Sequence record: LC373201.2 | Direction: 5' to 3' (one strand) | From: Enterobacter phage EspM4VN | Length of the DNA: 64,000 nucleotides | Shown: positions 934-47,055 of the stretch, one piece after another | Layout of the letters: each line of letters begins with the position of its first letter | Numbering within the stretch: the first letter of the stretch is position 1 | Made by a program: the position numbers and the translations under genes | The notes under the pieces: generated by a model | What the model was told of the DNA's origin: nothing | The model's database searches: none | Seen by the model: only the letters and a program-made list of their open reading frames with translations

Positions 934-1475
934 TGTTTACAGTCGTCGTTTCATACCATGCGGAAAATGCTGCTGATGCATCCGCCAAATTCGCCGAGCA
1001 TATCAGGGGTGGCGGCCACAACGTGTTCATCACCGAATACACCAGGCCTGTTAAACCAGGCGACGGTCTTTCGGCGACTGTGACACACAAGATCACCAGC
1101 AAAGAACCTGAATCTCTGTTCAATAGGATGGAAGAGTATGCGAGCGGCGGGGTGGAGATACCGGATGAACTGGTAGACGTCTACTTCGAAGGCTTGATCT
1201 ATTACATCCACGCCATGCCGAAGGATGTGACCAACGAACAGATGATGTATATCCTGAATATTGCATTGAACGCTGCGTGCATCAACCGCACGAACTACAA
1301 CAATCTGCGCAATATGTACCTAACCGATCGGCACAATGATGCGGGACCAACCGTTGAAATGTTGTCGCTCAGAAGCATTCAAGAAGCAGTCAACATTTTG
1401 TCTAACAAGGTGTTGGGTGTAGAGTTATTAACGACGATTAACAACAAAGAGGAAGTGAAATGGCCAGTTCATTAA
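933..1475 (+). CDS. hypothetical protein
   Basis: 180-aa ORF, start overlaps upstream stop, same codon usage as neighbours. Confidence 0.35.
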   Translation: MFTVVVSYHAENAADASAKFAEHIRGGGHNVFITEYTRPVKPGDGLSATVTHKITSKEPESLFNRMEEYASGGVEIPDELVDVYFEGLIYYIHAMPKDVTNEQMMYILNIALNAACINRTNYNNLRNMYLTDRHNDAGPTVEMLSLRSIQEAVNILSNKVLGVELLTTINNKEEVKWPVH

Positions 1476-2551
1476 TGGAACGCATGTTGAAGACTGCGAA
1501 GAAGCATTCTCCTGAAGCAGAAGTCTTGAGCAAGACAACGCTGCTGGACAAACAGGTGATTGCATCCACTGGTATCCCTCTGCTGAATATCGCCTGGACA
1601 GGTCGCCCTGATGGTGGTATTCATTCCGGCTCAAAACAGTTGGTTGGGGATTCGCGTACATTCAAGACCATGTTTGGGTTGGTTGACGTAAAGGCATATC
1701 TGGACACGTACGATGACGCGATCTGTGTGTTCGGTGACTCTGAGTTCGGTGCCAACCAGAAGTATTGGGACGCCATGGGCATCGATATGAATCGTGTGGT
1801 TCACGTGCCGATTGTATCGGTAGAGAACATGCAGATCGTGTTCATGCAGATGTTGAACGATACCCAGCGCGGCGAGCACATTATCTTCTTTATTGACTCC
1901 ATCAGCCAGTTACCTTCCACCAAAGAAGTCAATGATGCGATTAAAGGCGAAGACAAGCAAGACATGACCCGCGCTCGTGCCCTCAATAGCTTCTGGCGCA
2001 CCGTTACCGTTCAGCTCAACATGAAGAACCTGCTCATGGTATGGATCAACTCCTACTATGACGAGATCGGTAATGACTATGCCGAGCCTAACCTGAAAGG
2101 TGGTAAGCAGGGCTTCCTGTCCTGTGATCTGATCTGGTTCATCACTCGTCGCCAAGTTAAAGAAGAAGGCGACAAAGAAATCCGTGGTTGGCAATTCGTG
2201 ATCAATATCATGAAAGGTCGTCACGTTAAAGAGAAGGCTAAATTCCCTGTGACGGTGCTGTATGAAGGTGGTATTGACCGCTGGAGTGGTCTGCTTGAGA
2301 TCGCTCGCGCTCTGGGTTATGTAGAGTTGGTGAGCGGCTCTTGGTACCAGCGCACTGCCAAGGGTGGTTTCAACCAAGAGAAGGAAACCAAGCTGCGTAA
2401 AAGTCAGCTGGGCGAAGACTTCTGGTATCCCTTGCTGGAGAACCCGCAGTTCTGTGATGACATTCACGCCATGTGTGGCATTTCCACTGGTCCGGTGATG
2501 CCTGCTGACATGTTGGAGAAATTCGACAATGTTATCAAATCATCCGAGTAA
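1460..2551 (+). CDS. uvsX: UvsX RecA-like recombinase
   Basis: Alignable along its length with T4 UvsX (TGIPLLNIAW.GG.SGSKQ, FIDSISQL, DMTRARAL, QFVINIMKGRHVKEKAKF blocks). Confidence 0.9.
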   Translation: MASSLMERMLKTAKKHSPEAEVLSKTTLLDKQVIASTGIPLLNIAWTGRPDGGIHSGSKQLVGDSRTFKTMFGLVDVKAYLDTYDDAICVFGDSEFGANQKYWDAMGIDMNRVVHVPIVSVENMQIVFMQMLNDTQRGEHIIFFIDSISQLPSTKEVNDAIKGEDKQDMTRARALNSFWRTVTVQLNMKNLLMVWINSYYDEIGNDYAEPNLKGGKQGFLSCDLIWFITRRQVKEEGDKEIRGWQFVINIMKGRHVKEKAKFPVTVLYEGGIDRWSGLLEIARALGYVELVSGSWYQRTAKGGFNQEKETKLRKSQLGEDFWYPLLENPQFCDDIHAMCGISTGPVMPADMLEKFDNVIKSSE

Positions 2552-7218: not shown

Positions 7219-7277
7219 TTCAATAAACGATTTACCCATATAATACATGGGAACTTACACAAACGAGGATTACACTA

Positions 7278-7886
7278 ATGTCACTGAAAAACTTACTGAA
7301 ACGCATCTTCACCACTGTTGAAGCCAACGTCACCACAGGTCTGGATAAACTGACCGACACCGAAAAGCGCCTGAACCTGGCTGCTCGCAAGCTGTCTGAC
7401 GAAATCCGTCGCCTGGAAGAAGCCCGTGTCACCAACGTTCGCAACGGTGTCAAGCTGAAGAAGACCGCCGAAGAGAACCTGGGTGAAGCTGCCAAGCGTG
7501 AACAGGTTCTGAAGGACGCTATCGCCCGTGGTGCAACCCCCGCTCGTGCAGAAGCCCTGATCGTCCTGCACCGCCGTCGTATCGGTGAAGCCCTGTTGGC
7601 TCAGGTGAAGGGCATCGAAGCGAGCAGCGACAAACTGAACGGCGCGATCATCCAGCTGGGCGACAAACTAGACGAAGTGAAGTCTAACCTCGAGCTGGTT
7701 CGTGTTCAGAAAGAGACCAACGACCTGGGTCTGGTGCTTCCTGAAGATATCGATTATGCCGCTGGTATGACCACCATCGATATCGATGCCATCCTGCGTG
7801 AAACCGAAATCGCTGATTCGAGCTACTCCGCCAACAGCCCGTCGTCTATCGAAGCTGACAACTACCTCGCCAGCCTGAGCAAATAA
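7278..7886 (+). CDS. PspA/IM30 (Vipp1) family coiled-coil protein
   Basis: N-terminus LKRIFTTVEANVTTGLDKLTDTEKRLNLAARKLSDEI parallels E. coli PspA [37 protein letters not shown]; about 150 aa of heptad coiled coil; extreme optimal-codon bias (ctg, cgt, gaa, aaa); GAGGA RBS. Confidence 0.6.
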   Translation: MSLKNLLKRIFTTVEANVTTGLDKLTDTEKRLNLAARKLSDEIRRLEEARVTNVRNGVKLKKTAEENLGEAAKREQVLKDAIARGATPARAEALIVLHRRRIGEALLAQVKGIEASSDKLNGAIIQLGDKLDEVKSNLELVRVQKETNDLGLVLPEDIDYAAGMTTIDIDAILRETEIADSSYSANSPSSIEADNYLASLSK

Positions 7887-7888
7887 CA

Positions 7889-8470
7889 TTGGAGGGGCAT
7901 AAGCCCCTCTATCACTTCGGGGATCTTATGATCATTCTTGACAAATACGACATCCTCGCGTACACCATACAAGCCATGGTAACGATCGGTACGATCCACT
8001 TTACCCTGAAATTTTTGCGTAGAAGAAAACGGAAATTCATATCCTACCGCAATCGCGTGGACATCCACACAATAATGCTGGATAGAACTTGCAAACACGG
8101 TCCCAGCGGTGACTTCCGTTTGTATTATGTGTCGGATGAAGTCACCCCTTCGGAATTCTTCAATTATGCGATGACTGGTTTGCGTTGGCCGGAGATAAAT
8201 GGCGTTGTTCAGAAAAACGATTACGTGTACGCGAATATGTCCTCTCTGAACAAGCATGGGGAACGTGACGATCTGCGGATGTGGTTCTTTGGAAGAGAGG
8301 AACAAAAAGGGTTCGTAAAAGAACTTGCTCTATTTCTTGAAGCATATGAAAGGGCTGGCTGCCCAGCGCTCGAGTTAGAAGAAACAGTGGAATCTATCGT
8401 GGCTCGCGCCCGTGGTGAAACCGTGGATCTACTGAACAAATATGGGTTTGTTTGGGCGGAGGGTTCATAA
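7889..8470 (+). CDS. hypothetical protein (AT-rich island)
   Basis: 193-aa ORF whose codon usage is clearly more AT-rich than flanking genes. Confidence 0.4.
   Translation: MEGHKPLYHFGDLMIILDKYDILAYTIQAMVTIGTIHFTLKFLRRRKRKFISYRNRVDIHTIMLDRTCKHGPSGDFRLYYVSDEVTPSEFFNYAMTGLRWPEINGVVQKNDYVYANMSSLNKHGERDDLRMWFFGREEQKGFVKELALFLEAYERAGCPALELEETVESIVARARGETVDLLNKYGFVWAEGS
7893..7910 (+). terminator. stem-loop terminator after the PspA-like gene
   Basis: GAGGGGC-ataa-GCCCCTC hairpin; weak U tract. Confidence 0.45.
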
Positions 8471-8886
8471 TGGAAGACTTCAAATTGATTTTGGCATTTG
8501 TTGGAGCATTTGGTATCGTTTCGGTGGTGATCAACGCAGAAAGGCTGGACGAAAAATTTCATGAATGGCGTAAGGAACGCAAGCATGTCAGGGAATTGGA
8601 CCGACTTCCGCATGTTGACCTCATCGTACATAATGCTAGGAGGAGACAGAAATGACTTTCATTGAGATGGTGATGGCTGCTGGGATGACAGCAGGGGCAT
8701 TGGTTGGCATAGCCCTGCTGTTCTTCTTGTTCTTCTACATTGGTGTCCAATCATTAATACCCAAGAAGAAACATCACCCAAAGAACGTCGACATCATTGT
8801 CAGCCAAGCAAAATCCCGCGCCCGACAATAATCTATTGAAGTCTCTGGGGTTATAATAGCAGCACATATAACCCTGGAGGCACCAC

Positions 8887-10314
8887 ATGATCCCCATCCT
8901 TGAAACAGTCCACCGACTTCGCGAAACCAAAGGCAGCAATGCGAAGAAAGCTGTGCTGACCGAAGCATTCAAGAACAACCCCGACTTGGCAGACTTCCTA
9001 CAGTATGTCTATGACCCAATGACGTCTTTCTATCGCACTGAGTTGAAGCTCAGCGCGTATCCTCGCATGCTCGTCCGTGAGAAGACTGATGACATCAGCG
9101 AAGTCTATGACGTCCTCGACCAGATGGCACAGCGCCTTGTCGGTGGTCAAAAGGCTGATGCCCTGCTGGCATCTGTCGCCCTGAAGATGGATCCCCAATA
9201 CCAAGAACTCATCCAGATGATCCTGGACCGTGATATCAAGGCGGGTATTGCCGAGAAGGGTATCAACGCTGCATTCAACGCCGCCGGAGGCACTGGTCGC
9301 CTGATCAACATCCTTCCATATCATCGTTATGACAACATGACGATTGATCTGCTGAAGAAGATGGACTTCAAGCGCGGCGTTTACAGCCAGCTGAAGTCAG
9401 ACGGCATGTTCGCCAACATCATCTGTCGTTACAACAAAGAACCTGAGATTCGCTCTCGCTCCGGTTCCCTTATCGCAGGCGGTTCGGTTGACAATCTGTC
9501 TCTAGTGTTCAAGGACATCATCTATGATACGGGGATTGGCGAAAGCGTATTCCATGGTGAACTGCTCGTTGTTGACCTCAAGTCGAATGCGATCCTGCCT
9601 CGTGCTGTCGGTAACGGCAAACTCAACAGCGTGATTCAGACTGGCGAACCCCTGGAAGATCGTTATCAGGTGATCTATCGGGTGTGGGATGTCGTGCCTT
9701 ATGAGAAGTGGTTCAACGCAGAGCGCGTAGACCTGCCGTATGAAACCCGCTTCGACATGATCATGCAAATGTTCTACGAAGAAGACGGCCTGGTTCAGGT
9801 TCAGGAAACCCGTGTTGTCCACTCATTTGCCGAAGCCGTCGACCACTTCAAAGACGCGCTGGCTCGCAAAGAAGAAGGCACGATCTGTAAGGCCGCTGAC
9901 ATGCCGTGGGAAGACGGGACTTCCTCCGAAGGTCTGAAGCTGAAGATGGAGGTTGAGTGTGACCTTGAAATCGTGGGCTTTAACGAGGCCGACAAGAAGG
10001 GAAAACACGCCAAGACCTTTGGCTCCCTGCTGTGTAAGACTTCCGACGGCCTGCTTGTTGTTGGCGTCTCAGGGATCTCAGATGAGCTGAGGCTCCGGAT
10101 GTGGGAGAACCAGGGCGACTACATTGGCAAGATTGCCGCAGTGCTTTCCAATGGCGTACAGGATAAGACGGATGATGCGCTGAAGTCATTGTTCCTGCCT
10201 CGCCTTGCAGAAGTCCGCATCGACAAGAAAGTGGCCAACACGCTGGATGAAGTCTACGCGATTCAGAAAGCGTACATCGAAAACATCGTATTCCTGCTGG
10301 AGTCCGCAGCATGA
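8887..10314 (+). CDS. 30: ATP-dependent DNA ligase (T4 gp30)
   Basis: Nucleotidyltransferase motif I KSDG (LKSDGMFANI), 475 aa, ligase-length. Confidence 0.9.
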   Translation: MIPILETVHRLRETKGSNAKKAVLTEAFKNNPDLADFLQYVYDPMTSFYRTELKLSAYPRMLVREKTDDISEVYDVLDQMAQRLVGGQKADALLASVALKMDPQYQELIQMILDRDIKAGIAEKGINAAFNAAGGTGRLINILPYHRYDNMTIDLLKKMDFKRGVYSQLKSDGMFANIICRYNKEPEIRSRSGSLIAGGSVDNLSLVFKDIIYDTGIGESVFHGELLVVDLKSNAILPRAVGNGKLNSVIQTGEPLEDRYQVIYRVWDVVPYEKWFNAERVDLPYETRFDMIMQMFYEEDGLVQVQETRVVHSFAEAVDHFKDALARKEEGTICKAADMPWEDGTSSEGLKLKMEVECDLEIVGFNEADKKGKHAKTFGSLLCKTSDGLLVVGVSGISDELRLRMWENQGDYIGKIAAVLSNGVQDKTDDALKSLFLPRLAEVRIDKKVANTLDEVYAIQKAYIENIVFLLESAA

Positions 10315-10535
10315 GCAAAGACAGCACTGAACTGAAATGGAGGGATCTTGCCCTCCAGTTCGACGGGCACCGCATGCAGGCTCTTTGTTTCCTGAAACAG
10401 ATCCTGAGCGAATTGCCAGAAACCGAGTTCACAGAAGCCCGTGAATTCCTGAAAGCAGGTCCGATCCCTGGGGAGGAAGTCCTCCGACAGCGTTTGGCCG
10501 ACATGGTATCCAAGCAGGAGAAGAGTAATGGGTGA
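10311..10535 (+). CDS. hypothetical small protein
   Basis: 74 aa, ATGA overlap with ligase stop. Confidence 0.3.
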   Translation: MSKDSTELKWRDLALQFDGHRMQALCFLKQILSELPETEFTEAREFLKAGPIPGEEVLRQRLADMVSKQEKSNG

Positions 10536-10773
10536 GTATATGAGTTTCTGGTGGGCGAAGTTCTTGGTTGAACTTCAGATATCCGGTATCGTGTTCCTGG
10601 TCCTCTTCTCGATCGCCATGATCCCAGTTGCCCGTTCGGCGTTCAAGCAATGGCGCTGCAAACACAGCACCTATCGTGAGAACCGTGCTTGCCATGCTAT
10701 CTGCACCCACTGCGGGAAGGATCTAGGGTTTGTCGGCACTGTCCGGAAGATGAAGAATCACAAAGAGGTGTGA
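10528..10773 (+). CDS. small membrane protein with C-terminal Cys cluster
   Basis: TM helix ISGIVFLVLFSIAMIPV; CKHSTYRENRACHAICTHCG. Confidence 0.35.
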   Translation: MGEYMSFWWAKFLVELQISGIVFLVLFSIAMIPVARSAFKQWRCKHSTYRENRACHAICTHCGKDLGFVGTVRKMKNHKEV

Positions 10774-10774
10774 T

Positions 10775-11032
10775 ATGGACGAGCTATTTGCATTGGTGTT
10801 TACATTAACGTTCTTGCTGTCCTTGGTTGTCAGCTCGCTGGTGATGGTGCTGGTGTGGATAGCTATTCCCGACATCAAGAACCACAGGGTTCTCATCGCC
10901 GTGATGATCCTCGGTCTGAGCGCTTCCCTTACTATTCACTATTCCAAGCAGGAGTATAATCCTGACAAACATTACAAGACATTAGCGGACAAATATCATG
11001 ATTTCAAAACTTCGAGAAGTCAAGGAAAATAA
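10775..11032 (+). CDS. small two-TM membrane protein
   Basis: Hydrophobic LVFTLTFLLSLVVSSLVMVLVWIAIP and LIAVMILGLSASLTI. Confidence 0.3.
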   Translation: MDELFALVFTLTFLLSLVVSSLVMVLVWIAIPDIKNHRVLIAVMILGLSASLTIHYSKQEYNPDKHYKTLADKYHDFKTSRSQGK

Positions 11033-17749: not shown

Positions 17750-18157
17750 TCAGTCGTCCAGTTGATCGTAGATCTTCTGACGGAACGCATTACCGCCAGC
17801 ACAACCCGTGGCCAGCAGGCGAGTACCACCCGTGCCGATCACGCTGATGGTAGAGAAGCCCAGGATGCGGCCTGTGATGGACTGATCGACCTTCACTGTC
17901 TCTACCTTACCGATGCGCAGTTCGTCGGCATCACGACGGATGAACCCGCGCTTGACGATGACACGCTTGTTGGTCACAGCGAATTCAGTGGTCAACACGT
18001 TCAACACAGTCGGGATCAGGAACAGCAGACTGACGCCGAAGGTTGGCACAAACAGCAGAACAACCAACACATACATCCAGAAGCCGCTCCACCAAGTCGG
18101 GCGGGTGAAGGCAATAACTTGCTCGTCTTTGCCGAGCATACGATCTACATAACGCAT
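17750..18157 (-). CDS. membrane protein with bacterial PH (bPH/YdbT-like) domain
   Basis: Two N-terminal TM helices (WWSGFWMYVLVVLLFVPTFGVSLLFLIPTVL) followed by a FAVTNKRVIVKRGFIRRDADELRIGKVETV fold typical of DUF304/bPH_2. Confidence 0.45.
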   Translation of the reverse strand: MRYVDRMLGKDEQVIAFTRPTWWSGFWMYVLVVLLFVPTFGVSLLFLIPTVLNVLTTEFAVTNKRVIVKRGFIRRDADELRIGKVETVKVDQSITGRILGFSTISVIGTGGTRLLATGCAGGNAFRQKIYDQLDD

Positions 18158-31358: not shown

Positions 31359-32180
31359 TTAGACCACAGCCATTTCACAACGGGTGGAGGTCACAGAGTG
31401 GCCGTCGGCGTCTTCAACTACACACCAGTACTCACCCTCGTCGGCGGCATCAACTGCCGTGATAACCAGGCTTGCGGTAGCTGCAGTGGCGTTAGCGCCT
31501 GCATCAATCACCGTACCAGCGCCGCCAGGGACATCAGAGAAGTACCAAGCATACGTGTACGGTGTTGTGCCGCCTGTAGCAGCGATGGTGAAGGTTGCGT
31601 CAGCGCCTGCTGTCACATCCTGAGAAGCGGCCAGATCAGTAGACAGAGCCAGCGCACCCGCTACTGTGATGACGGTGGAGTCAGTGTGGCCGCCTTCGAT
31701 GGTTACGCCATAGACGGTCACCGAACCGGAAGCCAGCAGCTTGAATTTACCACCACCGATGTGTACTGCTTTGGTGATGTCGCCAGAGTACCAGTTGACG
31801 CCCTGATAGGTCGCGTTCGCCGGAGCGACGGTCGCCAGCAGTTCAACAACCTGACCGGCTTCGCCAGCAGCAGTCGCGGGAGTAATGGTCAGGCCAGTGG
31901 TCAGCACGGCGCTTGGGTCGTGGATTTCGTAAGAGATCTCGAAGCCGATAGGCTTGGTTGGATCAACTTTGGTCACGCCATCAGCCTGCAGATTGCTCTG
32001 AGTCAGCAGGGCGTCCAGGCCTTTACACTCGGTCAGGATCTCATCTGGGTCTTGGTTAAGACTGGTCTTTTCCCAACCCAGAGCAGTGCCCGTCACAGTG
32101 TGCAGACGCTCGGTTTCCGGTTTGTTGCGAACAACTTCCGGTGCTACTAATACAGTGATTGTTGGCATGGTTTCCTCCAC
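31359..32180 (-). CDS. Ig-like domain surface/decoration protein (Hoc-like)
   Basis: I-set Ig signature ATFTIAATGGTTPYTYAWYF ... GEYWCVVEDADGHSVTS; Thr/Ala-rich. Confidence 0.5.
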   Translation of the reverse strand: MEETMPTITVLVAPEVVRNKPETERLHTVTGTALGWEKTSLNQDPDEILTECKGLDALLTQSNLQADGVTKVDPTKPIGFEISYEIHDPSAVLTTGLTITPATAAGEAGQVVELLATVAPANATYQGVNWYSGDITKAVHIGGGKFKLLASGSVTVYGVTIEGGHTDSTVITVAGALALSTDLAASQDVTAGADATFTIAATGGTTPYTYAWYFSDVPGGAGTVIDAGANATAATASLVITAVDAADEGEYWCVVEDADGHSVTSTRCEMAVV

Positions 32181-33318: not shown

Positions 33319-34881
33319 TTACTTGTACAGGCCTGTCACATCAATAGACTTGTGCTGACGGTTGTACTCAGCCGTGTAATCATCCATCACCATGTATTCA
33401 CAGCAGCGGATTTTACTGGAGCCGTAATCGTTGGTGATAGAAACGATGTCACGTGGGTTCAGCTTACAGCGAACGACACGTTGGCCCACAGAACCGAAAC
33501 ACTCCTTCAGGTAGGCCAGGGAGCACACATGCAGACCGTACGAACACAGGTCGGTGTTGTTGTCGTTAACGAATGAGCGAGCCATACGCACGATGGTGCC
33601 GGGAGCGTTGCTGATCGTGTTGCTGTGCTTGTCCATGTAGTTGCCGCGCACGGATTTATAGAGGATGATGTCACCATCTTCATGAATCTCGATGTCGGAG
33701 TACGCCATGAACTCATAAATGCGCCCAGACTGAACCAGAGCAGCCGACGGGTTCTGGAACATTTTGTCCATGAACTTCGCCATACGTTCCAGATTGTCGA
33801 AATCACCTTTCAGCATCAGAGCCAGAACACGCTTGGCGATAGACGTGCCTGTGATGTCGTGGCCAGACCAGCGAACACGGTTGTCGGTCACTTCCACCAG
33901 ACCAGCAGCATACTTCGCGATGGCATCACGAGGACGCATCAGGGAGTAAGCCAGCTTCACGTCTTGGTCTTTGATCGCCTGAACGATGCGGTCATAGGCC
34001 GGATGAGAGGTGGTGATCGTTTCCGGCTTACCATCAATCGCGATGACAACGCTTTCCGGTAGAATCAGAATCTGGTGTTCGTTCAGGAACACATCCAAGT
34101 CTTTCGCGCCGAAGTCCTGCTTGGTCTTCTTGTCACCAGCCACTTCTTCAACATCTTTGATGACGACGGTGAATTCTACAGAAGACAGAGCCAGGCGCAG
34201 AGTGCGGCCGAGGATGGCATCGAAGTAACCAACACGGCGACGGGCATCCAAGGATCCACGGATAGGATAGGTTTCCCCGTCAACCACAACGCCGATTTCA
34301 ACGTTGCTTGGAACTTTGTCCGCACCTTCTGACAACGCCACAGAAATTTCTGCCATCTTGCCGATAGCTTCAACATTAAAAGCACGGCTGTTGCCTTCCA
34401 CTGCAGTCAGTTCAGACTTTTCAAAGAAAGCGCCTGTGAAATTGCCGTCGTTGGTGAGACACAGATACTTGTTGTGGTTCGGTAGATATGCCCCAACATA
34501 CCATTCTGAGTCCTCTTTGTCTTTGGCTGTCCCACCCGGCTGGACTTCGAATACTTTCTGCTCTTCCGGTTTGATAGGAGAGATCACAGTTACCTTGTTT
34601 TCCTCCTCGGTAATGCGGACCAGCAGAGCGCGAGCAATGGTCTTGGCACTGACGCTGAATGCTTCAGCCAGGGCGCGATTGCTCTCACCAGCCTTACTCT
34701 TCACCTGAATCTGCTGGATGTCTTCGGTAGACAGGGATTTCAGCGACAATGGATTGACGCCGAGTTCCGTGTCTGCAACACGTTGTACAGTCGAGCGGGG
34801 TATGCCCAACAGAGTAGCAATTGCGCTCTGGCTGGCGCCTGCCTTCAAATGCTTGAGGATCTTTTCATCAATCTTGTTCAT
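33319..34881 (-). CDS. rIIB: rIIB-like protein
   Basis: Directly downstream of and co-oriented with rIIA; N-terminal helix-turn-helix-like segments; start taken at MNKIDEKILKH. Confidence 0.45.
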   Translation of the reverse strand: MNKIDEKILKHLKAGASQSAIATLLGIPRSTVQRVADTELGVNPLSLKSLSTEDIQQIQVKSKAGESNRALAEAFSVSAKTIARALLVRITEEENKVTVISPIKPEEQKVFEVQPGGTAKDKEDSEWYVGAYLPNHNKYLCLTNDGNFTGAFFEKSELTAVEGNSRAFNVEAIGKMAEISVALSEGADKVPSNVEIGVVVDGETYPIRGSLDARRRVGYFDAILGRTLRLALSSVEFTVVIKDVEEVAGDKKTKQDFGAKDLDVFLNEHQILILPESVVIAIDGKPETITTSHPAYDRIVQAIKDQDVKLAYSLMRPRDAIAKYAAGLVEVTDNRVRWSGHDITGTSIAKRVLALMLKGDFDNLERMAKFMDKMFQNPSAALVQSGRIYEFMAYSDIEIHEDGDIILYKSVRGNYMDKHSNTISNAPGTIVRMARSFVNDNNTDLCSYGLHVCSLAYLKECFGSVGQRVVRCKLNPRDIVSITNDYGSSKIRCCEYMVMDDYTAEYNRQHKSIDVTGLYK

Positions 34882-34912
34882 CTTGTAGTTCCCACGTTGG
34901 TTAACAGGACTA

Positions 34913-37669
34913 TTATGCCCTGACAATGGAATTTGAAATAACGTCCAAGTAATCCGAAGAATTTTCAATCGGGTTCAGGGCGCTTGGTTTGTAGTTCTCT
35001 TTCAAGAACCGAATAACACGGTGTCGCTCGATGGTCAATCGATTGTCCCGCCTTGCCTTTAATGTCGGCGTCCGCGCAATATCGAATCGTGTAAACCCAT
35101 GTGTTTGCAGGGCATCCGAAGCGTATCCAAAGATCTGCAACATCTGGTGTTCTGAACGGAATATCTTTTCGTCGCGCTCGTTACTGTACAAATTCACGTT
35201 AAGAGAACTTATCGTGTCTTGGAAATGACTAAAACGACGTTTATCATGGATCGACACTGGGACTTTTGCCATGCTTTGATAATGGCGCACAGTCTGCTCA
35301 TCTAAGATGTCGTCCACAACTCTCATTAACTTGTTGTAACGTTTGACCAATTTGCCATAACGATCGTCTTCAACAACACCGAACGCCTGTTCAACCAGAT
35401 GGATCCCATATTTCAATCGGTCAGCCCCAAGTCGCATACGGCGGTATGATTCCAGTATGCGCCTGGCGCTATCGCGCTCCATCATAGGCTTCACGTTTTC
35501 CAACATGATCTTCAGAATTTCATCGATCGGGATGAAGACTTCTGGGAACTTCTTCATCATCGGAACCGATTTACGACGAGCCAAGAATATTCTGTCGTGA
35601 ATGTTCAGCATATCTTTGATGTACACAGGCTTGCCATCTTCATCCGCGTGAACGGCATGTTTGTACAGAGCCTCGCGGATGCCTCGCGCCGCAGCTGTGG
35701 TCAACGTTCTATCCATCACCTGGTGGATACACTCGTGGCCAGACACCTCAATGTAGACGATGCGCTCGCCCTTATTGATGATGTCAGAGATTTGTTCACC
35801 AGTCAGTTCTTCGTATTGGCGAATATCAAAATCACTTCTTGTGAACGGAAACAAACCAGGATCTTTGGTGACCGGAGGCGTGACATATGTCAGTTCATTC
35901 ATGAACTTGACTTCAGCAGGCTCCAGCACCGCACCCAACCAATCCATGAACTTGTCGGCGAAGAACAGATAATCGATCGTCGTTTCTTCTTCGCCAATCC
36001 AGGACTTGAAGAAGTCATGAAGTTCTTGGGCATTCCTGAACGCAGGGTTGTCCTTAGACTGGTTGCGCTTGGTGACATAAGAAGTGTTCGGTTTGGCCAC
36101 GATGACCATCGTCCCTGTATCTTTCAGTTGCTTGATCTTCAGGTTACGAGCACGGACACTGTCTTCTACAACCACAGTAACATGTTGACCGCGATCAATC
36201 CACTTCTGGATTTCTGAAATGGTCAAAGTACTGGACTCACCCCAGTCATAGAAGATCTCCATGGAGAACGGCGATGACAATTCATTGAACGGAGCGGTGT
36301 GGTCGTAGTCGCGGTCGATCTCAACAGGCAGCGGGTAACGGTAATATGAATCATGGAAGCGCTTGTCTGCCGGATATTCCTTTTCAACCATCTTGCGGAA
36401 CCCGCTGCCGAACATTTCGCTCAGTTTCGCCTTCTCCATATAGAGAGCAAGAGGACCGCGCTTACACGCCATCTCCAGGTCACGCATTTTATCCGTCAGG
36501 ATTGCATTGGCGGTCTCTTTAAACTCCTCAGAGAGCGTCTCACGCGTAAATTCGTCATATGAGAGGTCTTCACGTGATGGCGGTACGTTCAGGGAACCGA
36601 GTTCGAAGAACGTATAGGACGACGGAAACTTGCTCATGATGGAGGAAGTGTCTGGGTCCAGCTGATCCAGGTCAATCGGGTACGACACGCCACCCATCAC
36701 AGCGTAATGGGTGTGGTCGTTGCCCTTCGGCTGGATGTACGTGTTGTTGACCTTGAAATCGTAGCTGATGTCTTCCCAGCCGAAACGGTATGAAGCGTTC
36801 TCAACAACTGGACGTTGTTCAGGGCGCATGACACGACCAAGACGGACCAGTTCATCGGAGAACGCAGAGAAGCGAGCGTTCTTCACTGGGATCTTCACCG
36901 TCATGCCGTTGAATTCATCGGTGTCTTCCGGCTTAGGATCACGGGTTTCAAGATCTTTGGTGATCAGATCGACCGTTGGGATGCGCTTGGCGTTCAGGTA
37001 CATCAGGAAGCGATGGAGTTTGCCGTCCATGCGGCTTTCCACAGTGAACGAATCCGATACCGCAAATGGTGATTTTGAACCAAGGCCGAACGCCCCGATC
37101 TGATCATCGTCTTCTTCCTTCGTACTGTGGAAGAGTGTCGTGTACAGGCCGGGTGAACGGATGATCTCGCCATCTTCACGGCGGAACACCAGAGACCCAT
37201 TGTAGAACCCTGGGACGCCGATGACTTCAGCCGAGTCAGGGATCTCGTCTTCCTTCACGACCATGTTGCCTTCCAACAGCACTTCGTCTTCTTGGGCTGG
37301 GATGGCTTCGCCAATGATCTTCTCAAGCGGCAGGCCGATACCGTAATCACGGATTTCCAGCCATGGCTCAAAGTCGTCAGGTAGATGCACGACAACTCGT
37401 GTGCCCTTCGGTGCAAGGTATTTGCCGTGACGGGCAGGAGGGGGAGTGAGAGGCGCGTAGTGGGATGCTACCATACGGTGCATACGATCACGCATGCCAT
37501 GGGAGTCGATGGCGTTACAGGTGGTTTCACGCAGGGCTGCTGCCTCTTTGTAACGATATAATGATGAGAACAGAGTCTCAAACATCTTGTCGTTCATTTT
37601 GACGTTAAACGCCTGCCCCTGAATGGAAGACGACGAGCGGATAAAGTGCTCGGACTTGCGCATTTTCAT
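34913..37669 (-). CDS. rIIA: rIIA protein
   Basis: GHKL-type N-box RETTCNAIDSHGM and FGLGSKSPF match T4 rIIA RELITNMIDAH and GGFGLGSKSPF; 918 aa. Confidence 0.8.
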   Translation of the reverse strand: MKMRKSEHFIRSSSSIQGQAFNVKMNDKMFETLFSSLYRYKEAAALRETTCNAIDSHGMRDRMHRMVASHYAPLTPPPARHGKYLAPKGTRVVVHLPDDFEPWLEIRDYGIGLPLEKIIGEAIPAQEDEVLLEGNMVVKEDEIPDSAEVIGVPGFYNGSLVFRREDGEIIRSPGLYTTLFHSTKEEDDDQIGAFGLGSKSPFAVSDSFTVESRMDGKLHRFLMYLNAKRIPTVDLITKDLETRDPKPEDTDEFNGMTVKIPVKNARFSAFSDELVRLGRVMRPEQRPVVENASYRFGWEDISYDFKVNNTYIQPKGNDHTHYAVMGGVSYPIDLDQLDPDTSSIMSKFPSSYTFFELGSLNVPPSREDLSYDEFTRETLSEEFKETANAILTDKMRDLEMACKRGPLALYMEKAKLSEMFGSGFRKMVEKEYPADKRFHDSYYRYPLPVEIDRDYDHTAPFNELSSPFSMEIFYDWGESSTLTISEIQKWIDRGQHVTVVVEDSVRARNLKIKQLKDTGTMVIVAKPNTSYVTKRNQSKDNPAFRNAQELHDFFKSWIGEEETTIDYLFFADKFMDWLGAVLEPAEVKFMNELTYVTPPVTKDPGLFPFTRSDFDIRQYEELTGEQISDIINKGERIVYIEVSGHECIHQVMDRTLTTAAARGIREALYKHAVHADEDGKPVYIKDMLNIHDRIFLARRKSVPMMKKFPEVFIPIDEILKIMLENVKPMMERDSARRILESYRRMRLGADRLKYGIHLVEQAFGVVEDDRYGKLVKRYNKLMRVVDDILDEQTVRHYQSMAKVPVSIHDKRRFSHFQDTISSLNVNLYSNERDEKIFRSEHQMLQIFGYASDALQTHGFTRFDIARTPTLKARRDNRLTIERHRVIRFLKENYKPSALNPIENSSDYLDVISNSIVRA

Positions 37670-40150: not shown

Positions 40151-40720
40151 TCAGCCTTTGAAGTTGATCGGTTTCTGAACCCCAGCGTCAAACGCGGCCT
40201 GGGTACGGGTATCGCTCACCACCTGACAGGTCTTATCAAGATCGATGCGCGGGTAGCCAAACATGCCAGCAATCAACGAACCAGGGAACTGAGCCAGCTT
40301 GGTCTCGTACATCGCGCAGATGTCCAGCTTCTTGGTCTGGCTGATGCGGAATTCATCACGCCCAGAACTGATCACCACCTGGATCTCTTTGTACAGGCTG
40401 GAATCAAACTGAATGTTCTGCTCCTGGATCCACTGCATGACAGCCTTGGAACCATCAGCGCCATAACGCCCTTCGAACGTACCTTTGATCACTTCCTTCA
40501 GGCCGTCTTTGTACATGTCAGGAATCTGCGCCGTCTCCTGAACTTTGAGCGTGTAGTTGCTCAGGTAGTTCTCGGAGTCTTTGTTGAACTTCTTGACCTG
40601 CTGCTCAGTGCGGTTGAAGTCGTTGAAGTAGCTGATGACAGTGCCGATGCCGACAACAACAGCAGCCAGTAAAGCCAAACCAACGATCCAACCTGTTGCA
40701 ATACCCTTAGATTGAGACAT
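40151..40720 (-). CDS. LemA-family membrane protein
   Basis: N-terminal TM helix, then the LemA-like core, ending in FPGSLIAGMFGY (LemA FPxNxxAxxFGF motif). Confidence 0.55.
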   Translation of the reverse strand: MSQSKGIATGWIVGLALLAAVVVGIGTVISYFNDFNRTEQQVKKFNKDSENYLSNYTLKVQETAQIPDMYKDGLKEVIKGTFEGRYGADGSKAVMQWIQEQNIQFDSSLYKEIQVVISSGRDEFRISQTKKLDICAMYETKLAQFPGSLIAGMFGYPRIDLDKTCQVVSDTRTQAAFDAGVQKPINFKG

Positions 40721-40739: not shown

Positions 40740-41855
40740 TTAAAAATTAAACGGATAACGACGACGGCCACCATTGTACTCCATTCGCTGCAATATGAAA
40801 ATTGCGGTGAACGGCAGACAGCCCAGCAGAACAACAATCACAACTTCCCAGGTCTTGAGTTCCCGCCACTTCAGGTACTCCATTTCCTTCATCTCAACCC
40901 GGTTGTAACCTTTGGTGATGTTGGCAACAACGTCTGCCATGACGCCGATACCCATATCATGCCCGGTCAGGTCCATACCGTTGCGGGAGTGGAGTTCACG
41001 GTTGTGCATACCATCAGCGAACGAAGTGCTCTTACCCCAATTGATCTTCAGGTCTTTGCTGATATCGGTCACGACGATAACGTCGTTCTTTTTACCGCCA
41101 TCCCAAGCATAGACCAAGCCCTGGAAGTATTCAACTGGCTGACCGGAAGTCACAACCCAGACGATATTCACCTGCTTGGCTGCGCCCAGCTTCTTCAGGA
41201 CATCGTTCAGATAGTCGTTCCAGTATGTGGTCGGCAACGCCAGACCAGACACGTTCAGGACACGAGTGACACGATAATAGTCATAGACTTCAGGATACTT
41301 CGGAATCTTGTCTTTGAAGCGCTCGGCAAACTGCTGGTCTGAGCGAGAGAACAGAGAGTCCTTGTTGCCCAGCACATAGTTCATGTAGGAATGCTCACGG
41401 GCTGCGGGTTCGCCGATCTGAACCTGCGCCCAGCGCGGCGGCTGACCAAGACCACGGCGGTCGATACGGTCGATTGTCAGGTTGCCAACAGTCGTCAGCA
41501 CATCCCAATCCACGTCGTATGAATGCTCATAGCAGGTACTACAATGGCGGGTACGGGTGCAGGACTTGCTGCTACCGGAGCCGGAGCATGATGTGGTGTA
41601 ATAGCAGTTGCATTGATACGAGTGCTCACAGCTTACCTTATTCCGCTCCTTTGCAGTGACGTACCCGTTCAGGATCTCAACATCCCCTGAACTGCCGAGG
41701 GAGAACGCCGCATAAGCCCCGGCCTGAATCAGACATGACAACACCACTACAATCGCCGTTGCGCCCAAGGTCTCTTTCGGCTCATGGGTCTTGCGGTGGT
41801 AGACCACAAACAGGATGGCCAGTATCAATGGCACACCAAACAGGAGGTAGATCAT
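40740..41855 (-). CDS. two-TM membrane protein with Cys-rich module and C-terminal TPM-like (DUF477) domain
   Basis: N- and C-terminal TM helices; CEHSYQCNCYYTTSCSGSGSSKSCTRTRHCSTCYEHSY cluster; KNDVIVVTDISKDLKINWGKS resembles the TPM motif nGVLLLVaxxDRkvRIevGyG; start overlaps the LemA-side neighbour. Confidence 0.4.
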   Translation of the reverse strand: MIYLLFGVPLILAILFVVYHRKTHEPKETLGATAIVVVLSCLIQAGAYAAFSLGSSGDVEILNGYVTAKERNKVSCEHSYQCNCYYTTSCSGSGSSKSCTRTRHCSTCYEHSYDVDWDVLTTVGNLTIDRIDRRGLGQPPRWAQVQIGEPAAREHSYMNYVLGNKDSLFSRSDQQFAERFKDKIPKYPEVYDYYRVTRVLNVSGLALPTTYWNDYLNDVLKKLGAAKQVNIVWVVTSGQPVEYFQGLVYAWDGGKKNDVIVVTDISKDLKINWGKSTSFADGMHNRELHSRNGMDLTGHDMGIGVMADVVANITKGYNRVEMKEMEYLKWRELKTWEVVIVVLLGCLPFTAIFILQRMEYNGGRRRYPFNF

Positions 41856-44716: not shown

Positions 44717-45627
44717 CCCTTCTTCATCAGGTCAAGGAGAGAGCGCGACGCTGCCTTCGGTGCTTCTGGCTCGGCACTCGCCTTGGTTTTAGTTTTGGAT
44801 GCCTTCTGCGGCTTCTCAGGCACTCTGTGCGCCAAAGGATCCTGCCCACCGACCTCACGGGTCATTGGGTTGGTCTCACAGAAAGCATAGAAGTCTTTGC
44901 TGTAAAACCCATACGCTCGAGTTTCGTCCAATTGATGGTGGATAGCATTACCAACCACCCACAAAGGAGCATCGAACGGAAGGATAGCCACTTCTGAATT
45001 TGTCGGTGATTTGAACTCCTGGGTGTTGGTTTCCGGCGCTTTGTACAGAATGTCCTGCCCGCTGTAATTGTCTACCACAGGGGTGAAGCCCAGCGCCAGC
45101 ATTTCGGCCTTCGACTTCTCAAACTCCTTGGAGTAAGATTCGTTGCGTGACCAGCCAGAGTCCCCTGCTTCCTTACCAGAGCGCCCACGGATACGCGCAT
45201 CGTACTGGTAGCGGTCAGGGTATGCAAAGTACAGCAGCGCCAGAGATTCAATCGGATAGTTCTTGAACATCCATTCAGGACGCCATTTGTCCGACAACAT
45301 GAGGGGTTCACCCTCACAGACCAGGGTATACCCCTGAGCCAGCCAGCCTTTGACCAGATCACGAGCGATGTCACCGGATCCTGTGGCGGCATGAACGCCG
45401 TCCATAGAAGTCCATGAAGCCAGACCGGACTTGTTGGACACAGTGTACTGGCCGACGAAGATTAACTTCAGCTCTTCGAATTTCAGGCCAAACGGGCGCG
45501 TCTTGTCGCCGATAGTGTAGGTCAGTTCGGTAGGCTCCAGCTTCGTACGGAGCCATTCGATGAACTGTACGACACGAGTGCCTTTACCCGTGCCGGAGGT
45601 TCCTTTGATTACGATGATCTTTGCCAT
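44713..45627 (-). CDS. P-loop kinase (nucleotide or polynucleotide 5'-kinase family; candidate modified-base DNA kinase)
   Basis: Walker A GTSGTGKGT at the N-terminus; 304 aa; Lys/Ala/Pro-rich C-terminal tail. Confidence 0.5.
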   Translation of the reverse strand: MAKIIVIKGTSGTGKGTRVVQFIEWLRTKLEPTELTYTIGDKTRPFGLKFEELKLIFVGQYTVSNKSGLASWTSMDGVHAATGSGDIARDLVKGWLAQGYTLVCEGEPLMLSDKWRPEWMFKNYPIESLALLYFAYPDRYQYDARIRGRSGKEAGDSGWSRNESYSKEFEKSKAEMLALGFTPVVDNYSGQDILYKAPETNTQEFKSPTNSEVAILPFDAPLWVVGNAIHHQLDETRAYGFYSKDFYAFCETNPMTREVGGQDPLAHRVPEKPQKASKTKTKASAEPEAPKAASRSLLDLMKKG

Positions 45628-45932
45628 TATACAGCATCCTCAATACGCCAGCTCACGCCGCCCATCCAAGGTGCCCAGAATACAGCAACCTGCAGACGAC
45701 CGTTTTCTTCAAACTTCACTTTATACTGGTCGTCGAAGTTATAGAAGATTTCATCCGCTTCAGAGCGCTGACCGATCTCCACCAGTACGTCATGGAGAGC
45801 CTTGGCTGCGCCGATAGGAGTCGGAGTCTCCTGGCGACGAATGAAGTTGTTCACATGGATAATCACTCCATCCATATCACTATCACCAGAGCGTTTGTCT
45901 GGGGTTTCCCCGAACTTATTCTGTTCTTGCAC
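45627..45932 (-). CDS. hypothetical protein
   Basis: 101-aa ORF. Confidence 0.3.
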   Translation of the reverse strand: MQEQNKFGETPDKRSGDSDMDGVIIHVNNFIRRQETPTPIGAAKALHDVLVEIGQRSEADEIFYNFDDQYKVKFEENGRLQVAVFWAPWMGGVSWRIEDAV

Positions 45933-46713: not shown

Positions 46714-47055
46714 TCATTTGTCTTCCTCAACTTTGTCATAGCCTGTAGCAACACACTGTTCTTCTGTGCAATCAGCGTACAGAACAACAGACGCCTGCTT
46801 CACATAGGTGGTGCAGTGGTAGGTTTCGTCTTCCTGGATGGAATCGTCATAGTTGCAGACAGTCTGCAGGGGACCAGGAGTGGTGTTTTCCAGAGCCGCA
46901 TGAGCCTTGATGGTGTCTTCCATCTTAGACGTGGCCTGCTCATTAGTGAACGTCGGCGCGTCGAGGTCAACGGTAGACGCAACGTCCAGTAAGGTGGAGC
47001 ATGCGGTGGTAGAGAAAGCCAGAGCACACACCAGAAGAATCTTATTGAGTTTCAT
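46714..47055 (-). CDS. lipoprotein (signal peptide plus lipobox)
   Basis: MKLNKILLVCALAFSTTAC; occupies the immunity/superinfection-exclusion position next to the DNA polymerase gene. Confidence 0.4.
   Translation of the reverse strand: MKLNKILLVCALAFSTTACSTLLDVASTVDLDAPTFTNEQATSKMEDTIKAHAALENTTPGPLQTVCNYDDSIQEDETYHCTTYVKQASVVLYADCTEEQCVATGYDKVEEDK

Follow-up and report, generated by a model that had tools for sequence, protein, structure and literature searches.

The open reading frame at positions 7278-7886 of the Enterobacter phage EspM4VN DNA analysed here (LC373201.2; a 64,000-nucleotide stretch, called the window) encodes a compact member of the PspA/IM30 family, homologous over helices α0 to α3 to PspA and Vipp1, which form the bacterial branch of the ESCRT-III superfamily, whose proteins remodel membranes. 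The lineage to which this protein belongs is old, restricted to phages and includes the product of the T4 gene e.6. With a probability of roughly 0.55, we infer that the protein acts as an abundant peripheral membrane-stabilising polymer which the phage itself supplies.

Both the identification and the idea of an 'anti-suicide' role date from 2022, as the paper by Gendre et al. (2022; PMC9409062) describes phrog_1203 as a PspA homolog and proposes an anti-abortive-infection or proton-motive-force role for it. In addition, NCBI names both P0003 (94% identical to the EspM4VN protein) and the ortholog in Kuttervirus sal1 (79.7% identical) 'PspA/IM30 family protein', so the view in the sequence-only reading that this was not yet described as a phage function fails. 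The authors regarded the gene as something peculiar to SeF3a and a few Kutterviruses, and in the available part of their paper no link to T4 e.6 is drawn and the adjacent membrane protein is not mentioned (Gendre et al., 2022; PMC9409062). What is added here is the compact phage-restricted lineage that includes T4 e.6, the accessory status of the gene, and the arrangement of gene, RNA hairpin and membrane-protein gene.

Homology to PspA and Vipp1

The coding sequence, whose coordinates were confirmed exactly, starts with ATG and specifies 202 residues (22.1 kDa; Table 1). Its product matches Pfam family PF04012 (E = 1.1e-11; residues 5-147 on profile positions 1-144 of 220), the score of 45.2 bits lying above the gathering cut-off of 33.9, and a precomputed match to this family is present on most orthologs. 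Only 7 of 35 family representatives match PF04012 at E≤0.01, and T4 e.6 taken alone gives no match to it. The PspA equivalog model TIGR02977 reached 13.1 bits where its cut-off demands 243, and the LiaH equivalog model was also far below its cut-off.

Profiles were needed to detect relatives in the PDB, because a phmmer search there with the single protein found no match. A profile of 22 Ackermannviridae orthologs returned only Vipp1 and PspA as its top eight PDB entries, in register (6-144 against 3-142; E = 0.002), and a Straboviridae-only profile independently placed Vipp1/PspA at the top, in register from residue 1 (E = 1.7e-4), with the hairpin crystal structure 4whe among its matches. 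Comparison of the wider family with enterobacterial PspA by hhalign gave a probability of 89.5% (E = 2e-6) and a further hhalign comparison 82%, both of which are probably underestimates since the PspA profile was shallow (the relatives listed were all at least 86% identical). In a shuffle control (heptad-block and mononucleotide), none of 2000 shuffled PspA sequences reached the 20.9 bits of the real one, the maximum being 15.1. A homolog search with the ortholog alignment, limited by its word index, recovered the same Ackermannviridae proteins, and a 3868-residue bacterial protein (P0060; E = 2e-19) was rejected as an additive artefact without homology, its score being the sum of 17 weak repeats of 5-9 bits each in an adhesin-like sequence.

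The AF2 model contains helices at residues 3-83 and 90-149, with pLDDT values of 87-97 across the α1 / α2-3 hairpin, and when it was compared with the PDB by Foldseek the top 11 matches were all Vipp1. At the level of fold, the match to eukaryotic or archaeal ESCRT-III was not better than that to unrelated coiled coils. The PspA/IM30 assignment made in the sequence-only reading is thus borne out by the PF04012 score, the PDB profiles, Foldseek, hhalign and the shuffles, and the contrary outcome, a generic coiled coil with no PF04012 match, did not arise.

The N-terminal region aligns to PspA/Vipp1 residues 1-22, and as a putative membrane-binding element it has a hydrophobic moment of 0.47, compared with a family median of 0.41 and 0.49 for E. 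coli PspA; amphipathicity and positive charge are kept across 35 representatives, with a net charge of +1 to +4 in most members. The hairpin that follows is the core common to PspA, Vipp1 and ESCRT-III, and at its tip lies glycine 85, which is invariant among Ackermannviridae orthologs and forms the consensus across the wider family. The protein is basic up to residue 147 (pI 9.8) and acidic from residue 148 onward (pI 4.05). The C-terminal module ends in an E..YL..L helix and also contains a conserved LG(L/I) hinge and a D-x-D motif, and its conserved short helices (156-163, 169-175 and 190-201) are modelled with low pLDDT (45-63). The region corresponding to α4/α5, the helices through which PspA-family polymers make contacts, is shortened, divergent and alignable only in part, with hhalign reaching PspA residue 171 at the start of α4.

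Table 1. Features of the PspA-like gene and its surroundings (positions in the window)
Feature	Position	Strand	Basis
TATAATA, -10-like, possibly part of the gene's own promoter, 33 nt before the start codon	7239..7245	+	Upstream pattern scan
Shine-Dalgarno GAGGA, 8 nt before ATG	7265..7269	+	Read from sequence; kept in Ag3 and sal1
Compact PspA/IM30-family coding sequence	7278..7886	+	PF04012, phrog_1203, CAI; ortholog of Ag3 orf00049 and T4 e.6
α0 equivalent, cationic amphipathic N-terminal helix, putative membrane-binding element (residues 3-22)	7284..7343	+	Hydrophobic moment, PspA/Vipp1 alignment
α1 / α2-3 helical hairpin (residues 23-149), tip at residues 84-89 (RGATPA)	7344..7724	+	AF2, Foldseek
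Acidic family-specific C-terminal module (residues 150-202), shortened α4/α5 equivalent	7725..7883	+	Two alignments, hhalign, pI
9-bp G+C-rich hairpin, ΔG -17.1 kcal/mol, no T-run, directly 3' of the gene	7890..7911	+	Scan and fold energy
180-residue N-terminally anchored single-pass membrane protein, phrog_11433, predicted cytoplasmic C-terminal domain	7928..8470	+	PHROG match
Two small single-TM ORFs (61 and 59 residues) ahead of DNA ligase	8470..8831	+	ORF list, hydropathy, PHROGs 'membrane protein'

Like E. coli PspA and B. subtilis LiaH, the phage protein has an amphipathic α0, a hairpin with a tip glycine, no transmembrane segment and a similar size (202 residues against 222 in PspA), while its identity to PspA is ~15% across the profile alignment and the acidic module ending in E..YL..L stands in place of α4/α5. 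Vipp1 (IM30; 6zvr, 7o3w, 8qbw) provides the best structural and profile matches (top 11 in Foldseek, top 8-9 in hmmsearch) at 18-21% identity; a cationic α0 is common to both, but the phage protein is without the C-terminal extension (α6) of Vipp1. Unlike the Psp and Lia systems, the phage gene is not accompanied by PspF/PspB/PspC or LiaI partners, as its neighbours are replication genes and genes for unrelated membrane proteins, and it is carried by virulent phages rather than induced by stress from a σ54 promoter as PspA is. With eukaryotic and archaeal ESCRT-III (CHMP, Snf7, CdvB) the protein has in common the hairpin core and the basic N-terminal and acidic C-terminal halves; unlike in those systems, neither a Vps4-type ATPase nor a MIM motif turned up for it.

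A phage lineage that includes T4 e.6

The EspM4VN protein matches phrog_1203 over almost its entire length (E = 4.2e-67; residues 4-201 on profile positions 1-199 of 200). T4 e.6 (msp3; NP_049742, P39224) is a full-length member of the same family, as hhalign of the family against e.6 gives a probability of 100 (E = 2.3e-41) and the pairwise alignment shows 24% identity over 196 residues with one gap (E = 4e-14); it is also assigned to this PHROG in a published supplement (PMC11879866). The search across Ackermannviridae and T4-like phages that the sequence-only reading had suggested uncovers a phage-restricted family of ~200-residue proteins with 1107 phage records, mostly from T4-like phages.

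In the literature on T4 e.6, main texts gave nothing and mentions were confined to supplementary tables. These data place e.6 in the early RNA class and the middle protein class, with the protein detected, and report that transposon insertions are tolerated at 43 of 43 sites and that knock-down leaves laboratory growth of the phage without a phenotype; a role of the gene, if any, would thus be conditional. The promoter-gene-hairpin arrangement is also seen at T4 e.6, with annotated -35/-10 elements directly upstream and a stem-loop directly downstream; e.6 differs in lying in the e to tRNA neighbourhood and in having no phrog_11433 partner. Across the Straboviridae, family members lie in settings that bear no relation to that in the Ackermannviridae, namely the nrdD region or e to tRNA.

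Within the Ackermannviridae the PspA-like gene is accessory and patchy: 84 records contain it, compared with 269 that contain the neighbouring ligase (both at 60% identity or more), and for Salmonella-phage records the corresponding counts are 43 and 164, so that about two thirds of relatives are without it. Where present, it occupies a variable slot between conserved replication genes, located between the gp41 helicase and DNA ligase/gp59; in EspM4VN the flanking genes are orthologs of UvsX, gp41, DNA ligase and gp59, which agrees with the replication-gene setting first read from the sequence. The same position, between phrog_2319 and ligase, is taken in Kuttervirus SeF3a by the ortholog Gp_125 ('shock protein A'; 79.7% identical). 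A literature search found no Ackermannviridae transcriptome. As for a possible place in the virion, the PspA-like protein is not among the identifications from Ag3 proteomics, in which only six bands were analysed.

Codon usage and neighbouring membrane-protein genes

The codon adaptation index (CAI) of the PspA-like gene, calculated with weights after the Sharp and Li E. coli table, is 0.549, which ranks first among 98 ORFs of the window, and its ENC of 34.0 is the lowest. This CAI lies ~8 standard deviations above the expectation for the same protein written in window-average synonymous codons, and none of 5000 simulations reached it. The claim that this codon usage is the most optimised in the window therefore holds by rank, but the lead is tiny and the top effectively shared with three further ORFs (0.545, 0.543 and 0.543), and the accompanying statement that lysine is encoded almost exclusively by AAA is wrong (AAA 7, AAG 9). 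That the protein is made in large amounts is a prediction from codon usage only.

Candidate expression signals lie on both sides of the gene (Table 1). Ag3 and Kuttervirus sal1 do not have the TATAATA element, the space being taken up by another ORF in both, which makes its case as a promoter weak. The downstream hairpin, with a compensatory change (G-C to A-T), is kept in Ag3 and sal1, and it is likely to be a 3' mRNA stabiliser or partial terminator between a gene of high and one of weak predicted expression; the three membrane-protein genes immediately downstream have CAI values of just 0.215-0.275, with the phrog_11433 gene at 0.275.

The order of gene, hairpin and ~180-residue membrane-anchored protein was found in every Ackermannviridae genome checked. 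There are 84 phage records for phrog_11433 (43 from Salmonella phages), directly downstream of the PspA-like gene in all matches listed; it is found in four Ackermannviridae genera, with homologs in IME250 and, by architecture, Bue1, and in phage S8, the one PspA-less genome examined, the PspA-like gene and the membrane-protein gene are both missing. Ag3 orf00048, which is 95% identical, is reported to have a transmembrane segment, and an RRRKRK stretch follows this segment; AF2 from the single sequence gave no usable fold (pLDDT 37.9). This neighbour is not conserved in the Straboviridae, as the gene that follows in Margaery, Aes012 and T4 (e.5) encodes a soluble, unrelated protein, and T4 e.4 compared with the 2-TM neighbour in PSTCR6 gave only E = 0.033. 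The phrog_11433 protein is a candidate for a partner to the PspA-like product. The two small single-TM ORFs complete a cluster of membrane-protein genes, although their membership in any module is uncertain. It can be proposed tentatively, with the odds leaning against it, that the Ackermannviridae PspA-like gene, the hairpin and the gene for the ~180-residue protein form one mobile two-gene 'membrane-guard' module, in which an abundant polymerising soluble part, the counterpart of the T4 e.6 protein, would be combined with a scarce membrane anchor, nucleator or client.

The sequence-only reading had also placed the gene in a dispersed envelope toolkit, which stands in part. Its bPH assignment was confirmed, as the ORF at 17750-18157 (minus strand) matches bPH_2 (PF03703; E = 2.1e-12), its 47.5 bits being well clear of the cut-off of 22. 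Its LemA/TPM pair is unsupported: the supposed LemA (40151-40720, minus strand, 189 residues) has only a partial PF04011 match with E = 0.053 and 13.8 bits against 26.2, and belongs to phrog_1383, a 'virion structural protein', whereas the supposed TPM protein (40740-41855, minus strand, 371 residues) matches no Pfam family even at E≤1 and has phrog_2087, a PHROG of unknown function, as its sole match. What is left of the toolkit is therefore a single confirmed additional gene (bPH_2), plus rIIA/rIIB (33319-37669, minus strand), which were absent from that reading.

Proposed function and alternative explanations

If the protein is a membrane-stabilising polymer, it would be made abundantly before or around replication, α0 would bind the cytoplasmic face of the inner membrane, and the hairpin and C-terminal helix would promote polymerisation, by analogy with PspA and Vipp1. 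The polymer coat would then seal or stabilise stressed membrane and preserve the proton-motive force; in the Ackermannviridae, the weakly expressed downstream membrane protein would be a likely anchor, nucleator or client of this polymer. Shut-off of host transcription is established for T4 and presumed for EspM4VN, and we propose that the phage needs its own PspA because the σ54-dependent host psp response could not be induced after such a shut-off. The stress to be countered could be self-inflicted (by small phage membrane proteins, superinfection or holin leakage) or defence-inflicted (by depolarising abortive-infection effectors), and it is plausible that the protein keeps the cell energised or counters depolarising Abi systems. 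A functional analogy can be drawn with T4 rIIA/rIIB, which are also phage-encoded, membrane-associated and non-essential and protect against a depolarising Abi system (Rex), but which are unrelated to it in sequence and fold and, in contrast to the patchy PspA-like gene, occur in nearly all of these phages. Points that weigh against the membrane-polymer reading are the shortened, poorly modelled α4/α5, the small share of family representatives that match PF04012 (7 of 35, with T4 e.6 not among the matches), the absence of a pspB/C/F-like partner, the lack of conservation of the membrane-protein neighbour in the Straboviridae and of the promoter-like element, the derivation of high expression from codon usage only, and the lack of a laboratory phenotype for T4 e.6.

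Several of the same observations would suit a dedicated counter-defence protein, one that patches lesions made by membrane-permeabilising or depolarising effectors (for example RexAB-type, AbiZ-type, or the transmembrane effectors of CBASS, Thoeris or retrons) and provides a second anti-Abi layer beside the rIIA/rIIB of the window. The patchiness in Kuttervirus (the 43 against 164 Salmonella-phage records), the variable slot between replication genes and the dispensability of T4 e.6 on laboratory strains are in keeping with this explanation, which has already been put forward as a hypothesis (PMC9409062). We regard it as unlikely, since no genetic link to any defence system is apparent, the sole PADLOC match, a coiled-coil one to a Type I S subunit, was spurious, 1107 records from mostly T4-like phages suggest a housekeeping accessory more than an arms-race gene, and such extreme codon optimisation, with the structural-protein-like abundance it predicts, is unusual for specific inhibitors.

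The constant position between the gp41 helicase and DNA ligase/gp59 throughout the Ackermannviridae, and the labels 'tail completion protein' or 'host specificity protein' on some records, could instead point to a generic coiled coil with a non-membrane role, as a replication or recombination scaffold or organiser or a morphogenetic chaperone, whose similarity to PspA reflects distant ancestry. This is improbable, as the phage protein resembles PspA/Vipp1 specifically, with the register kept from residue 1 and α0 included, and unrelated coiled-coil proteins score nowhere near it by sequence profile; the Straboviridae copies lie in neighbourhoods of other kinds, the labels are automatic and evidence-free in the records seen, and the gene's absence from ~two thirds of related Ackermannviridae and dispensability in T4 argue against a core role in replication or morphogenesis. 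Very improbable is a regulatory mimic that imitates host PspA and manipulates the envelope-stress response by binding PspF, thereby silencing the psp operon, or PspB/PspC. The conserved part of the phage protein is the α1-α3 hairpin, which in E. coli PspA is the part that contacts PspF, but identity to host PspA is only 30% over 50 residues (E = 0.015), so surface mimicry is unlikely. In addition, hosts of the family have differing Psp systems (Aeromonas, Erwinia, Providencia, Klebsiella), titration of a low-abundance regulator needs no very high expression, and a shut-off of host transcription is in any case to be expected from such phages.

The practical value of these results is as a pointer to experiment rather than as a discovery, and because the family includes T4 e.6 and genome-wide screens of T4 are at hand, the question is open to the T4 model system now. 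If the membrane is indeed sealed and kept energised by this protein, it would establish a new class of 'host-maintenance' or counter-defence factors encoded by phages, and this would be relevant to phage-therapy candidates in Kuttervirus, Agtrevirus and Taipeivirus. Should the module reading also be true, ESCRT-III-type membrane repair would be an activity that large virulent myoviruses widely encode themselves.

Homology and predicted fold of the PspA-like protein

The 202-aa reading frame for which a sequence-only reading had proposed a PspA/IM30 identity was found at the proposed position, and its product matches Pfam PF04012 (PspA_IM30) at E=1.1e-11; the score of 45.2 bits exceeds the curated cut-off of 33.9, and aa 5-147 align to profile positions 1-144. 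Because this match is significant, the proposed likeness holds and the protein is not a generic coiled coil devoid of a profile match. When a profile of 22 Ackermannviridae orthologs was compared with the PDB, the eight best matches were all Vipp1/PspA chains (6-144 aligned to 3-142), and unrelated coiled coils appeared only at E>0.3; for a Straboviridae-only profile the first nine matches were Vipp1/PspA entries, including E. coli PspA (4whe), with E=1.7e-4 to 9e-3 and 1-146 aligned to 1-147. Alignment by hhalign to enterobacterial PspA, for which the profile is shallow, gave probabilities of 89.5% (whole family) and 82% (Straboviridae branch). In a shuffle control, real E. coli PspA scored 20.9 and 17.6 bits, values attained by 0 of 2000 shuffles (1000 heptad-block and 1000 full; mean -5, sd 2.8, maximum 15.1). 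These comparisons, all aligned from the N-terminus, agree in supporting a PspA likeness, and at the level of sequence they establish homology to PspA/Vipp1 over the predicted alpha0 to alpha3.

The AlphaFold2 model (mean pLDDT 78.8) contains the expected long hairpin, formed by helices 3-83 and 90-149 at pLDDT 87-97; the three short helices after it are poorly supported. Features conserved family-wide include a glycine in the tip of the hairpin, a hinge with the sequence LG(I/L) beyond alpha3, a D-x-D motif and a terminal E..YL..L helix. The family N-terminus is cationic and amphipathic (median hydrophobic moment 0.41, compared with 0.49 for E. coli PspA alpha0; most members carry a net charge of +1 to +4), and a hydropathy scan of the phage protein found no transmembrane (TM) segment. 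Its pI is 9.8 over the N-terminal 147 residues and 4.05 over the last 55, a charge asymmetry like that of ESCRT-III subunits, which typically have a basic N-terminal and an acidic C-terminal part.

Extent of the family and its T4 member

An exhaustive profile search over 1.84 billion representative proteins yielded no more than 43 clusters with E<=1e-3. Almost all have 195-205 aa and align over their entire length; just one (P0086, 230 aa) looks like a cellular PspA. The phage protein barely resembles the PspA of its host (30% identity over 50 aa). The family is therefore judged to be an old, compact, phage-restricted lineage and not a recent host capture. A 3868-aa bacterial protein (P0060, E=2e-19) was rejected, since its E-value arises solely from summing 17 adhesin-type repeats that each weakly match the LGL..P.D.D segment (5-9 bits), a case that urges caution with summed repeat scores.

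The annotation of Shigella phage Ag3 labels the ortholog "e.6", and T4 e.6 (197 aa, annotated "conserved hypothetical") proved to be a full-length homolog of the family (hhalign probability 100, E=2.3e-41). In a pairwise alignment the two proteins share 24% identity across 196 aa with one gap (E=4e-14). A published table places it in the same PHROG, phrog_1203 (PMC11879866 supplement). By itself, T4 e.6 has no PF04012 match even at E<=1. By tblastn, the e.6 family was seen in 1107 phage records.

Expression, neighbourhood and the accessory module

With CAI weights from the Sharp and Li E. coli table, the PspA-like gene has the highest CAI of the 98 window ORFs (0.549) and the lowest ENC (34.0), so the view that it is the most optimised gene stands, with three ORFs practically tied at 0.543-0.545 (a Hoc-like structural protein, DUF7292 and phrog_4823) and four in all at 0.51-0.545; the uncharacterised products among them (DUF7292, phrog_4823, DUF7254) are presumably abundant. 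The accompanying statement that lysine codons are almost exclusively AAA was wrong (AAA 7, AAG 9). Re-coding the protein with window-average synonymous codons gave a CAI of 0.307 +/- 0.030, and 0 of 5000 simulations attained the observed value; flanking replication genes lie at 0.27-0.43 and the three membrane-protein genes directly 3' at 0.215-0.275. These figures suggest that the gene is highly expressed. In a T4 multi-omics data set, e.6 falls in the early RNA and middle protein classes and its protein was detected; 43 of 43 transposon sites were tolerated ("Non-essential"), and dCas13d knock-down of e.6 had no fitness effect. By homology, the PspA-like gene may share this timing and dispensability.

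A GAGGA ribosome-binding site lies 8 nt 5' of the ATG. The hairpin that follows the gene separates it from a membrane-protein gene (CAI 0.275) and is conserved from Agtrevirus (Ag3) to Kuttervirus (Salmonella phage sal1) with one compensatory G-C to A-T change. The upstream TATAATA has no conserved counterpart in Ag3 or sal1, in which this space is taken up by an additional ORF. In Ag3, sal1 and SeF3a, an ORF of ~113 aa (Ag3 orf00050, phrog_5022) lies between the PspA-like gene and the gene 5' of it; the window lacks this ORF and has a 59-nt spacer with TATAATA instead (7219-7277, against L001:7590-8000). The layout is comparable to that of T4 e.6 (msp3), which has its own -35/-10 directly 5' and a stem-loop directly 3' (GenBank L13089).

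The best DNA relatives of the window are Shigella phages MK-13 and Ag3 and Salmonella phage SKML-39 (90-93% identity), and the phage is Ag3-like (Ackermannviridae, Agtrevirus). The location among replication genes was correct, because a local tblastn comparison with the Ag3 annotation confirmed, on the 5' side, dUTPase, UvsX, the gp41 helicase and a phrog_2319 protein of ~400 aa and, on the 3' side, DNA ligase and gp59. Identity to Ag3 falls to 68.6% in the UvsX ortholog, against 88-98% in flanking genes, which suggests a mosaic or recombinant segment. Small ORFs (59-85 aa) lie on both sides of the ligase gene, at least four with predicted TM segments, which is unusually many membrane proteins for a replication block.

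Measured against the neighbouring ligase, found at >=60% identity in 269 records, the PspA-like gene is rarer, with only 84 records at >=60% identity. Salmonella phages number 164 among all ligase-carrying records and 43 among PspA-carrying ones. In Kuttervirus S8, the one PspA-less genome examined, the flanking genes are kept and both the PspA-like gene and its 3' neighbour are absent. This neighbour (phrog_11433) occurs by tblastn in 84 records, of which 43 are Salmonella phages, the same Salmonella count, and lies ~190-250 bp 3' on the same strand in all matches listed. Its product is N-terminally anchored, the Ag3 ortholog having a reported TM segment; the RRRKRK stretch that comes next implies a cytoplasmic C-terminal domain; a single-sequence model reached pLDDT 37.9. 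Taipeivirus IME250 (a Serratia phage) has a 177-aa homolog (26% identical, E=2e-11) of which just a 49-aa fragment is annotated, and Nezavisimistyvirus Bue1 has a 178-aa protein with the same architecture right after its e.6-like gene. The pair is thus an accessory two-gene module in Ackermannviridae; the linkage was not found in the Straboviridae neighbourhoods examined. T4 e.4 and a Providencia phage PSTCR6 gene, 3' of the e.6-family gene (two genes off in T4, adjacent in PSTCR6), encode ~130-aa two-TM proteins with a basic coiled-coil tail, their kinship unproven at pairwise E=0.033.

Coordinates of features in the window and in related loci
Feature	Position	Strand	Remarks
UvsX ortholog	1460-2551	+	
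TATAATA	7239-7245	+	5' of PspA-like gene
PspA-like CDS	7278-7886	+	ATG start, 202 aa
Hairpin	7890-7911	+	dG -17.1 kcal/mol, no T-run
Membrane-protein CDS (phrog_11433)	7928-8470	+	180 aa, PHROG match
Small ORFs around ligase	8470-8831; 10311-11032	+	
bPH_2 protein	17750-18157	-	confirmed
Ig-domain Hoc-like structural protein	31359-32168	-	CAI within 0.51-0.545
rIIB and rIIA homologs	33319-34881 and 34913-37669	-	PHROG E 1e-280 down to 0
Supposed LemA	40151-40720	-	189 aa, N-terminal TM segment; LemA E=0.053, below threshold; PHROGs "virion structural protein"
Supposed TPM protein	40740-41855	-	371 aa, Cys-rich, TM segments at both ends
DUF7254 protein	45627-45875	-	CAI within 0.51-0.545
DUF7292 protein	46714-47055	-	CAI within 0.51-0.545
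phrog_4823 protein (unknown function)	51119-51646	+	CAI within 0.51-0.545
Membrane-protein counterparts in relatives	L008:4646-5179; L011:3190-3726		
T4 e.4	L006:402-794	-	two-TM protein
PSTCR6 neighbour	L012:3102-3509	+	two-TM protein

Proposed role and prior knowledge

A rationale is offered by T4, in which infection is known to shut off host transcription; the sigma54-dependent host psp response would then not be inducible, and the phage would have to supply such an effector itself. The PspA-like protein would be produced in large amounts from the pre-replicative stage to the middle period, bind the cytoplasmic membrane on its inner side, polymerise in the manner of PspA and Vipp1, and seal or stabilise stressed membrane and sustain the proton-motive force; the scarcer phrog_11433 protein may be its anchor, nucleator or client. 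We give this general membrane-guard model a probability of about 55%. The stress countered could be self-inflicted or defence-inflicted, the data fitting either, and a guard directed specifically against abortive infection (Abi) seems unlikely. A coiled-coil role away from the membrane is improbable, and mimicry of PspF or PspBC slightly more so.

The suggestion that the phage carries a dispersed envelope-maintenance toolkit held in part: the bPH_2 protein was confirmed, whereas the LemA identity found no support (sub-threshold score, structural-protein label) and the supposed TPM protein has no Pfam match. That suggestion had passed over the membrane-associated anti-Rex genes rIIA and rIIB. 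In phages of this kind, these two are better documented as membrane-associated genes acting against Abi. The codon adaptation of rIIB is among the better ones in the window (CAI 0.47).

The sequence-only reading erred in regarding the function as undescribed in phages. NCBI names a 94% identical ortholog (P0003) "PspA/IM30 family protein", the sal1 ortholog (79.7% identical) bears the same name and that of SeF3a is called "shock protein A"; a BFVD entry from Acinetobacter phage ME3 with the name "PspA/IM30 family protein" is a different protein and closer to the canonical form. Gendre et al. (2022; PMC9409062) describe phrog_1203 as homologous to PspA and put forward the same functional hypothesis, against Abi and for the proton-motive force, and a large survey of PSP evolution includes viral lineages as a figure column only, without discussion of phage copies (PMC11237479). 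The feature is therefore real and correctly identified, yet not a discovery, because it was already annotated and already hypothesised in print. The present analysis adds the outline of a PspA lineage that is compact and specific to phages, the accessory module of PspA-like and membrane-protein genes, and an explicit tie to T4 e.6 that opens the question to testing in a model phage.
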